A DNA stretch of 64,000 nucleotides from Candidatus Hodarchaeaceae archaeon (lineage in GTDB: Archaea; Hadarchaeota; Hadarchaeia; Hadarchaeales; Hadarchaeaceae): assembly GCA_030016755.1 (NCBI GenBank), contig JASEJC010000001.1, positions 4,883-68,882 of the forward strand, read 5' to 3'. How positions within the stretch are numbered: the first letter of the stretch is position 1; each line of letters begins with the position of its first letter. A program made the position numbers and the translations under genes. Shown here piece after piece: positions 1,289 to 50,902 of the stretch. A model generated the notes under the pieces. The model saw nothing but the letters and a program-made list of their open reading frames with translations, was not told the DNA's origin and ran no database searches.

Positions 1289-1396
1289 TGGTGCGGGGGA
1301 GGGGATTCGAACCCCCGAACCCCTACGGGACCAGACCCTGAATCTGGCGCCTTGAGTCGGCCTTCAGGACCTTTGACCTGGCTAGGCTACCCCCGC
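1289..1396 (-). tRNA. tRNA-Leu(CAG), class II, with an encoded CCA and a ~20-nt non-canonical intron in the D-arm region (about 1350-1369)
   Basis: Hand-folded. Acceptor GCGGGGG/CCCCCGC, D stem GCC/GGC after removing the insert, anticodon stem CCAGA/TCTGG with loop TTCAGGG. 14-nt variable arm, T arm GGGGG-TTCGAAT-CCCCT, then ACCA. Confidence 0.85.
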
Positions 1397-1482
1397 ACCT
1401 GAAAATCATTGGGTGTGTAGCTTTAACTTTTCTTCTGGGGCAACCTATATGAAAACAGGGGACAATCAGGATTTGGGATAAC

Positions 1483-46979: not shown

Positions 46980-47166
46980 GATCGGTTGCGCTCGGAACTC
47001 AAAATCTTCATCACAAATCAGATTAGCCAGGCTCCTCATCGCGCGTGATAAATTTTCAACTAGGAGGCTTAAAGTTGCGGGTCGATGAAAGGATTACCCC
47101 GCGTTAATGTTAATACGCCCCGCGCATCAGTTCAATGCTGAAACGAGCGAGGATTGGGATGATAGG

Positions 47167-48283: not shown

Positions 48284-48826
48284 TTATGGTCTCTCGCGAG
48301 TCAGCGCGTAGTAGGTAACGTCTCCCTCGTCATCCACGATTGCCCACAAAATTTTCTTCCTCACGCTGTGGGCGAGCCGCACAGCCCGCGCGAGTTCGGT
48401 GGGCGTGAGCTTCACCCCCTCTGGCACCGCCTGAACCAAAAACTTGGAATGCGCTTCCCCTGGTTTGTCCCCGCGCTCGTACACCCGGAAGTGAGCCCCG
48501 AACTTCAGACCCGTCTTGATTATGTACCCTCGCGAGCGGAGGTCGGCGTAAACCGCGTACTTGAGCATGGCCTCGGGGTCTGCCTCGGTGAACTTCTCCA
48601 AGAGGTCTTTGAACTTCAGCTTCTTTCCTTCCTCGTCGACCACGCGGAGCTTCCCGCCCTCAAGCAGGTAGAAGGCCTCGGCGGGCGCAAGCTGGAGCTT
48701 CCCCCCCGCCAGCGGCTTTCCGTAAGAGCCCCGCTGGTAGAGCTGGTTCGCCTGCGCCTCGTCCCAGACTATTATTTTGCCTTTGTACAACTGGGCCTCT
48801 ACAACTGGGATTTCGGCTTCTTCCAT
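48284..48826 (-). CDS. endA: tRNA-splicing endonuclease EndA (short, ~180-aa subunit)
   Basis: YADLRSRGYIIKTGLKFGAHFRVYERG...HSKFLV contains the catalytic Tyr/His/Lys context. Confidence 0.85.
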   Translation of the reverse strand: MEEAEIPVVEAQLYKGKIIVWDEAQANQLYQRGSYGKPLAGGKLQLAPAEAFYLLEGGKLRVVDEEGKKLKFKDLLEKFTEADPEAMLKYAVYADLRSRGYIIKTGLKFGAHFRVYERGDKPGEAHSKFLVQAVPEGVKLTPTELARAVRLAHSVRKKILWAIVDDEGDVTYYALTRERP

Positions 48827-50809: not shown

Positions 50810-50902
50810 TGGTGGGGTCGCCGAGATTCGAACTCGGGTCACTGGCTTTTTCGCCCGAGGGCCCCGAAGCCAATAGGATAGACCAGGCTACCCCACGACC
50901 CC
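50810..50902 (-). tRNA. tRNA-Pro(CGG) with a 15-nt canonical (37/38) intron and an encoded CCA
   Basis: Hand-folded. Acceptor GGGGTCG/CGACCCC, anticodon stem TTGGC/GCCAG, loop TTCGGG-[GCCCTCGGGCGAAAA]-A. T arm CCGAG-TTCGAAT-CTCGG, then ACCA. Confidence 0.85.

Follow-up and report, generated by a model that had tools for sequence, protein, structure and literature searches.

The window analyzed here is a 64-kb (64,000 nt) stretch of contig JASEJC010000001.1 from an archaeon of the Hadarchaeota, and its minus strand carries a gene for tRNA-Leu(CAG) that is interrupted by 20 extra nucleotides in the D-arm region (Table 1). The 108-nt gene, on the minus strand of 1289-1396, reads GCGGGGGTAGCCTAGCCAGGTCAAAGGTCCTGAAGGCCGACTCAAGGCGCCAGATTCAGGGTCTGGTCCCGTAGGGGTTCGGGGGTTCGAATCCCCTCCCCCGCACCA. 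Its 5′ exon is made up of the acceptor strand GCGGGGG, U8 and A9, the D-stem strand GCCU, and the D-loop AGCCAGGUCAA. The 3′ exon starts with A22, GGC, and G26, continues with the anticodon arm CCAGA-UUCAGGG-UCUGG (anticodon CAG at 1340..1338), and ends with the variable arm, the T arm, the acceptor strand, and ACCA. The long variable arm, A73 before CCA, and the 7-nt loop UUCAGGG with U33 identify a class II tRNA-Leu. The D stem GCC/GGC, the anticodon arm (CCAGA-TTCAGGG-TCTGG in the DNA), the variable region of 14 nt (TCCCGTAGGGGTTC, with a CCC/GGG stem), and the encoded CCA, all named in a preliminary description of this DNA, were each read off the minus strand. Upstream lies a candidate B recognition element (BRE)/TATA element, GAAAAGTTAAAG, which is kept at equal distance from the tRNA gene in the orthologous loci L129 and L131 and would act as its promoter.

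The gene escapes routine annotation. ARAGORN did not call it in the 64-kb window, where the sole tRNA call was 50810-50902, and an Rfam search of the window at the gathering threshold with default filters did not report it either, giving only the tRNA already called by ARAGORN. With permissive filters, RF00005 aligned to 1292-1396 (-) over the full model length with 46.6 bits, compared to a gathering score of 29 (E-values of 4e-9 on 301 bases and 8e-7 on the whole window). The D-loop takes up 28 nt in this alignment vs. 4 in the model (24 extra nt). The covariance model, which had been set beforehand as a check, prefers the proposed fold and puts the extra bases in the D-loop. Once 20 nt are removed, ARAGORN recognizes a regular 88-nt class II tRNA-Leu(cag). 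This spliced form is identical to intron-less syntenic orthologues at 81-85 of 88 positions (82 of 86 for the shorter L130), and its T arm and anticodon stem match those of CAG orthologues, unlike those of GAG paralogues. Genomes of this lineage processed with ARAGORN and default Rfam would be annotated without a tRNA-Leu(CAG).

Table 1. Features of the 64-kb window discussed in the text (positions counted from the first nucleotide of the window).
Feature	Position	Strand	Basis or remark
tRNA-Leu(CAG), whole gene	1289..1396	-	108 nt, class II, discriminator A, encoded CCA at 1291..1289
5′ exon, tRNA positions 1-21	1373..1396	-	Register from the bulge-helix-bulge scan
3′ exon	1289..1352	-	Sequence, Rfam alignment, ARAGORN on the spliced form
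Intron AGGUCCUGAAGGCCGACUCA, 20 nt, position 21/22	1353..1372	-	Sole fitting register; missing in orthologues
Central helix, 5′ strand GGUC (G18 G19 U20 C20a)	1375..1378	-	4/4 with GACU
Central helix, 3′ strand GACU	1355..1358	-	Bulge-helix-bulge scan
5′ splice-site bulge AAA	1372..1374	-	Predicted cut between 1373 and 1372; scan and local fold
Inner hairpin h′ (GGUC, CUGAA loop, GGCC)	1359..1371	-	Scan and local fold
3′ splice-site bulge CAA	1352..1354	-	Predicted cut between 1353 and 1352; scan
Candidate BRE/TATA element GAAAAGTTAAAG	1421..1432	-	Centre about 29-30 nt upstream of the tRNA 5′ end
Candidate C/D box small RNA	46989-47043	-	Rfam snoPyro_CD, 34.6 bits, below gathering score 45, E = 0.002
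EndA (tRNA-intron lyase), 180 amino acids	48284..48826	-	Pfam PF02778 and PF01974; presumed intron-excising enzyme
tRNA-Pro(CGG), 15-nt intron at canonical 37/38	50813-50902	-	Strict bulge-helix-bulge; Rfam 45.7 bits

Five different 20-nt deletions, with cuts after tRNA-strand bases 23 to 27, yield one and the same product. The deletion of 1350-1369 by which the preliminary description had restored a canonical tRNA is one among these five, and the few-nucleotide ambiguity of the junction that it pointed out is real, although the bulge-helix-bulge resolves it to a single register. For every combination of cut position and intron length that gives back a tRNA-Leu layout, we scored the fit to the standard bulge-helix-bulge geometry, in which a helix of 4 bp is followed on the 3′ side of each strand by a bulge of 3 nt and the cut falls behind the second base of the bulge. 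The optimum was a cut after base 24 with a length of 20 nt, which gives a central helix with 4/4 pairs and an inner helix of 4 bp; among the five equivalent registers only one fits in this way. In precursor numbering the central helix is G19G20U21C22/G39A40C41U42, the bulges are A23 A24/A25 on the 5′ side and C43 A44/A45 on the 3′ side (the slash within a bulge or splice site marks the cut, here and below), and the inner helix is G26G27U28C29 paired with G35G36C37C38 around the loop CUGAA. The last exon base before the intron is A21, and the intron therefore lies at 21/22, on the boundary between D-loop and D stem (1372..1353), and not around positions 24-26 as first placed. A local minimum-free-energy fold of bases 8-50 showed the central helix and the inner hairpin again, with the AAA bulge between them. 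Among 200,000 shuffles of the 20-nt insert, a fraction of 5e-4 had all four central pairs together with 4 bp or more of inner helix, in a register that still yields the tRNA product. We concluded that the bulge-helix-bulge in the insert is more than chance. The same geometry also recovers position 37/38 for the intron in the tRNA-Pro(CGG) gene of the window, where UUCG (32-35) and CGAA make up the helix, with bulges GG/G and AA/A (ARAGORN labels this tRNA "tRNA-???", with a 2-base anticodon). On its outer side the tRNA-Leu motif has the D stem GCC/GGC across six unpaired bases and lacks the outer helix of at least 2 bp abutting the 3′ bulge that characterizes the strict hBHBh′ form, the substrate class of α4 and α′2 EndA. 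Because of this imperfect outer helix, the motif is of the relaxed HBh′ type.

The intron might also be sought elsewhere in the gene. When given the 108-nt precursor, ARAGORN with option -i returns a tRNA-Leu(cag) with a 21-nt intron, AGGCCGACTCAAGGCGCCAGA, at about 31/32, where the 5′ strand of the anticodon stem meets the loop; CCUGA then serves as the stem strand, and AGGU closes the D stem on its 3′ side. In its 5′ portion (AGGUCCUGA) the insert does resemble the true exon AGGCGCCAGA. Removing such an intron, however, leaves U opposite U in the anticodon stem and a G-U pair in the D stem, position 26 is missing from the product, and the junctions gave no bulge-helix-bulge in the scan. Moreover, the extra bases fall in the D-loop of the Rfam model, and orthologues without the intron carry GGTCAA-AGGCGCCAGA-TTCAGGG as a contiguous exon. 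We regard an intron at about 31/32 as very improbable and keep to 21/22 in what follows.

The history of the insert can be followed in related genomes. A metagenome scan anchored on the anticodon and variable arms of the gene found six loci, none of which contained the intron (6/6 intron-less). Five of these six are syntenic with the window, with DUF1512 and EF-2 genes beside the tRNA gene, at 66-72% nucleotide identity; the gene order at the syntenic loci is AIRC-Sua5-tRNA-DUF1512-EF2. We also compared the tRNA-Leu(CAG) locus in contigs that encode graded DUF1512 homologues. At 96% DUF1512 identity, L127 (GCA_030018345.1) keeps the intron with one change, C to A at the first base of the 3′ bulge, and L128 (Logan assembly of SRR23186780) has an identical intron up to the end of the contig. 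At 82% (L129), 80% (L130), and 77% (L131, with Sua5 and AIRC as in the window), the tRNA-Leu(CAG) gene is intron-less. The insert is absent from the syntenic orthologues L121-L124, L126, and L129-L131, and in intron-less orthologues the stretch AGGCGCCAGATTCAGGGTCTGG is contiguous with GGTCAA. Since the intron is present at 96% and absent at 82% or less neighbour-protein identity, the resident CAG gene appears to have gained it recently, within a species-level lineage; independent loss in every sampled relative would be far less parsimonious. The locus is unusually clean for dating an intron gain and offers a test case for the spread of bulge-helix-bulge introns.

The short direct repeat at the junctions (TCAAAGG and TCAAGG) could be taken for the trace of a sequencing, assembly, or chimeric artefact, or of a small local duplication without biological role. 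That the insert occurs in three independent assemblies (the window, GCA_030018345.1, and SRR23186780), and that the repeat recurs at the junctions of unrelated 21/22 introns, for example in Methanomassiliicoccales (GGTCAA/... GACCAA/AGG), makes such an origin hardly credible. A target-site or tandem duplication was likewise rejected as the source of this TCAA(A)GG repeat, which follows from the pseudo-symmetric build of the bulge-helix-bulge: each half of the motif consists of a helix, an A-rich bulge, and then GG.

When introns were ranked by similarity, those of Hadarchaeota tRNA-Leu(GAG) genes came first after the gene's own lineage, with 14/20 identical positions. The intron may conceivably have been copied from such a paralogous tRNA-Leu (GAG) gene; some Bathyarchaeia introns reach 13-14/20, a margin too small to decide on the donor. 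Transfer from a paralogue, a plausible route, would fit the proposal that introns have transposed in Thermoproteales (Fujishima, 2010, as summarised in PMC4090602). As a separate observation, the DNA directly 3′ of the tRNA-Leu gene (about 1265-1288) differs among close relatives (L127:1-640, L129:1-1100). Sua5 follows directly downstream in the window and in L131, a DUF6429 gene in L127, and DUF116 plus a small open reading frame in L129, and L127 and L129 have a TTTTTTATCCG stretch in common after the tRNA. An element may have been inserted or deleted at the 3′ end of the tRNA-Leu gene.

Introns at the same site are found in many other archaeal tRNA-Leu genes. When species-representative genomes were scanned for genes that resemble tRNA-Leu and have additional bases behind AGCCWGGTCAA, at least 120 loci came up; the pattern demanded an intact GGTCAA 5′ of the insert, so that the share of 21/22 is a biased estimate of usage. 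Among the matches listed, to which the lineages named below also belong, 54 have the insert exactly after GGTCAA; the central helix is 4/4 in 44 of them and 3/4 in 7 (among the 54 are the window gene, the closely related L127, and one or more false hits in bacteria). At least about 45 other tRNA-Leu genes thus carry an intron at 21/22, roughly nine in ten with a 4/4 central helix. The 3′ strands of the central helix elsewhere are GACC, GGCC, GACU, GGCU, GAUC, and GAUU, each complementary to GGUC. Within the Hadesarchaea, the site is occupied in tRNA-Leu(GAG) of L032, L040, and L115 (e.g., AGGTTTAACGACCGACTAA). It is also occupied in tRNA-Leu(CAA) of at least 14 Methanomassiliicoccales (e.g., GGTC AA/T GATGA..TCATC GACC AA/A), and the Methanomassiliicoccales-type genomes recovered (L007, L016, L025, L030, L035, L043, L044, L053, L075, L079, L101, L105, L111, and L118) always have a 21-28-nt intron there in this gene, with a very regular motif of GGUC/GRCC plus a 5-8-bp inner helix. 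The genome papers and other literature searched make no mention of tRNA introns in Methanomassiliicoccales. Further cases are tRNA-Leu(CAG) of Methanocellales (L026, L036, and L072), genes of Bathyarchaeia, Hecatellales, Brockarchaeota, Caldarchaeum, Nitrososphaeria, and several DPANN archaea, and tRNA-Leu(UAA) of Pyrobaculum sp. WP30 (L028), which has a 28-nt intron at exactly 21/22.

We aligned 32 distinct 21/22 introns in a fixed register (alignment A1). In this alignment 92% of cells are paired, and shifting the 3′ partners by 1-3 columns lowers this share to 23-44%. Pairing in the central helix reaches 95.3% with changes on one side only, which is to be expected where the tRNA dictates the 5′ strand. 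The inner helix is paired at 82.8%, and at each of its four pairs both partners have changed between lineages; because this helix was used neither in selecting nor in registering the sequences, it is independent evidence of selection on structure. The bulge-helix-bulge at 21/22 thus appears from the covariation to be under selection. We also considered a conserved outer helix G15C16C17/G23G24C25, which forms in the window with one bulged A and would make the motif nearly strict. It is 87.5% paired across the 21/22 introns, never compensated, and broken when the D stem differs; being uncompensated across lineages, it was not counted as a conserved part of the motif.

In the textbook division, euryarchaea have strict canonical introns, and relaxed non-canonical introns belong to TACK and DPANN archaea. 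The wide use of 21/22 in tRNA-Leu, including euryarchaeal orders, suggests that this division is too simple. The conserved D-loop G18G19U20C20a-A-A would supply half a bulge-helix-bulge. A possible but still doubtful generalization is that 21/22 is a recurrent archaeal tRNA-Leu intron site at which the D-loop is already half the motif, and that the window holds a recent, species-level gain there. The site is occupied in lineages with endonucleases that are reported as, or appear to be, strict-type, α4 in the case of Hadarchaeota; for Methanomassiliicoccales and Methanocellales, a "Cluster II" statement in PMC5829648 indicates an α′2 EndA. If the generalization were true, enzymes without a known specificity loop would process relaxed HBh′ D-loop introns efficiently in vivo, which runs counter to the rule of co-evolution between intron motif and endonuclease architecture. 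Neither the breadth of 21/22 use nor the dated gain is mentioned in the literature searched, which does not prove that they are new to the field.

The presumed splicing endonuclease is encoded in the same window. The preliminary description correctly noted one EndA of about 180 amino acids, and phmmer and hmmsearch found no second EndA-like open reading frame in the 64 kb. The protein is not the catalytic subunit of a crenarchaeal-type heterotetramer; it is collinear with the M. jannaschii α4 enzyme and lacks the broad-specificity loop known as CSL. The EndA is 80-91% identical to Hadarchaeota EndAs of 179-180 amino acids, among them a "Hadesarchaea archaeon" protein (83%) and APZ16_03595 of Ca. 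Hadarchaeum yellowstonense (P0021; 80%). The DUF1512 protein encoded next to the tRNA gene has a Hadesarchaea match with 96% identity, and nearly all of the named homologues in the range of about 66-77% come from Hadarchaeota. By these two proteins the host belongs to the Hadarchaeota, which are neither TACK nor DPANN archaea. The best single-domain structure match of the EndA is the M. jannaschii α4 EndA 1A79 (130 bits, end to end), and the Tyr-His loop is of equal length in the two (YERGDKPGEAH vs. YERGANIDKEH in M. jannaschii). The A. pernix α subunit has a 9-residue insert (..DVEKPRGADFE..), the CSL with its Lys, that is missing from the EndA of the window, and ARMAN-2 has 5 more residues in the Tyr-His loop. 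A broad-specificity loop with a conserved Lys by the active site, as in (αβ)2 enzymes (CSL, L1) or ε2 enzymes (ASL, L2), was not found. PMC5829648 credits the Hadesarchaea EndA with an "L3 loop"; in our comparison with M. jannaschii no indel was seen in the Tyr-His loop or in the C-terminal domain. The EndA of the window is thus predicted to be α4-like. A candidate C/D box small RNA with recognisable C, D′, C′, and D boxes lies just upstream of a TrpRS-like gene and the EndA gene.

In the proposed splicing pathway, the D-loop bases G18G19U20C20a and the GACU close to where the intron ends would form the 4-bp central helix. The 5′ bulge would consist of A20b, A21, and the first intron base, the 3′ bulge of intron C-A and A22, and the GGUC/GGCC hairpin within the intron would be the inner helix. 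The α4-like EndA (48284-48826) would cut after the second base of both bulges and an RtcB-type ligase would join the exons, giving an ordinary 88-nt class II tRNA-Leu with the junction AGCCAGGUCAA/AGGCGCCAGA.

Several points weigh against this pathway. The A. fulgidus α′2 and M. kandleri enzymes, which have no specificity loop, removed a D-loop HBh′ intron only inefficiently in vitro according to PMC5829648, and the EndA of the window has no CSL and no Tyr-His-loop indel compared to the strict-type M. jannaschii EndA. The outer helix had length 0 in the scan, A17a opposite G23 being a mismatch. Global minimum-free-energy folds of the precursor at 37 and 70°C gave no cloverleaf, but the spliced tRNA fails to fold into one likewise, so that these folds are uninformative here. 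Finally, splicing of the tRNA-Leu(CAG) intron is something that we infer from the DNA. The relaxed motif, the EndA without known broad-specificity loops, and the very young age of the insert would also suit a decaying or non-functional copy, in which the insert is kept or poorly removed and another tRNA-Leu reads CUG, as tRNA-Leu(UAG) could in principle do. Such decay is at odds with exons that are intact and near-identical to those of orthologues, with the conserved promoter-like element, and with an unpaired bulge base as the sole difference from L127. Covarying introns at 21/22 in many lineages, including other Hadarchaeota tRNA-Leu genes, and the presence of a tRNA-Leu(CAG) gene at the syntenic locus in relatives speak against it as well, and we consider it improbable. 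The covariance model, the bulge-helix-bulge, the covariation, and the orthologues agree on a 108-nt tRNA-Leu(CAG) gene whose D-arm region is interrupted by a non-canonical intron of roughly 20 nt, as originally described. In our judgement 1396..1289 (-) is very likely a functional tRNA-Leu(CAG) gene with a 20-nt protein-spliced intron between positions 21 and 22.

Other unusual tRNA-Leu genes were noted in the course of this work. Four Hadarchaeota tRNA-Leu(CAA) genes (L001, L034, L069, and L074) have a 13-17-nt intron at 30/31, in the 5′ strand of the anticodon stem, with a central helix CGCC/GGCG and the 5′ splice site in a hairpin loop (a bulge-helix-loop-like relaxed motif), which implies that the Hadarchaeota enzyme handles relaxed motifs. 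The tRNA-Leu(CAA) genes of Bathycorpusculum and related Bathyarchaeia (L021, L041, L076, L086, L095, L100, and L107) have 34-39-nt introns at the canonical position with a conserved, D-arm-like internal stretch (..CGCTTTGAC..AAGGCGCTCTGATGGGAA). In L037, L038, L077, L102, and L113 (Bathyarchaeia/Nitrososphaerota), the 13 bases before the D-loop are unlike an acceptor strand plus D stem; these genes may have a further intron near positions 9-13, or may be split or permuted.

The closest known relative of the system described here is pre-tRNA-Glu(UUC) of M. kandleri, with an HBh′ D-loop intron at 20b/21 (PMC5829648). It shares the type of motif, nearly the same place, a non-TACK host, and an EndA without CSL or ASL. 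It differs in being a class I tRNA-Glu with an (αβ)2 enzyme and an extra canonical intron, whereas the window has a class II tRNA-Leu and an α4-like EndA, and cleavage in M. kandleri was assayed in vitro. PMC5829648 also reports an α4 EndA and a marked increase in disrupted tRNA genes for Hadesarchaea YNP_N21 (Ca. Hadarchaeum yellowstonense), which is of the same phylum, has an EndA 80% identical to that of the window, and likewise combines α4 with non-canonical introns; in the text consulted it figures in a genome-level tally that does not describe gene or site, and the L3 loop attributed there was not seen here. Kaneta et al. (2018; PMC5829648) left open how an α4 EndA without CSL or ASL copes with relaxed introns outside the anticodon loop. 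For this specificity question, a 108-nt substrate and a 180-residue α4-like EndA in one 64-kb window make up a defined pair.

Bulge-helix-bulge or relaxed introns outside 37/38, including D-loop introns, also link the window to Thermoproteales, for which non-canonical introns and intron transposition are described (Sugahara, 2008; Fujishima, 2010; both as summarised in PMC4090602), and to Aeropyrum pernix, whose pre-tRNA-Thr has a D-loop intron (PMC3241643). Thermoproteales have similar introns in different tRNA genes of one lineage, suggesting gain at the DNA level. These organisms have an (αβ)2 EndA with a CSL, which the EndA of the window lacks, and here synteny dates the gain to within a species-level clade. 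With the canonical strict hBHBh′ intron at 37/38, the tRNA-Leu(CAG) intron shares the 4-bp central helix, the 3-nt bulges, and the predicted cleavage geometry. It differs in its position at 21/22, in the D stem across an asymmetric loop that replaces the outer helix, and in the exon strand of the central helix, which is the anticodon loop in canonical introns and the conserved G18G19 region here. Non-canonical D-loop introns as such, and disrupted tRNA genes together with an α4 EndA in Hadesarchaea, are established; what goes beyond them is that a very recent gain could be dated by synteny and that so many lineages use the 21/22 site in tRNA-Leu.

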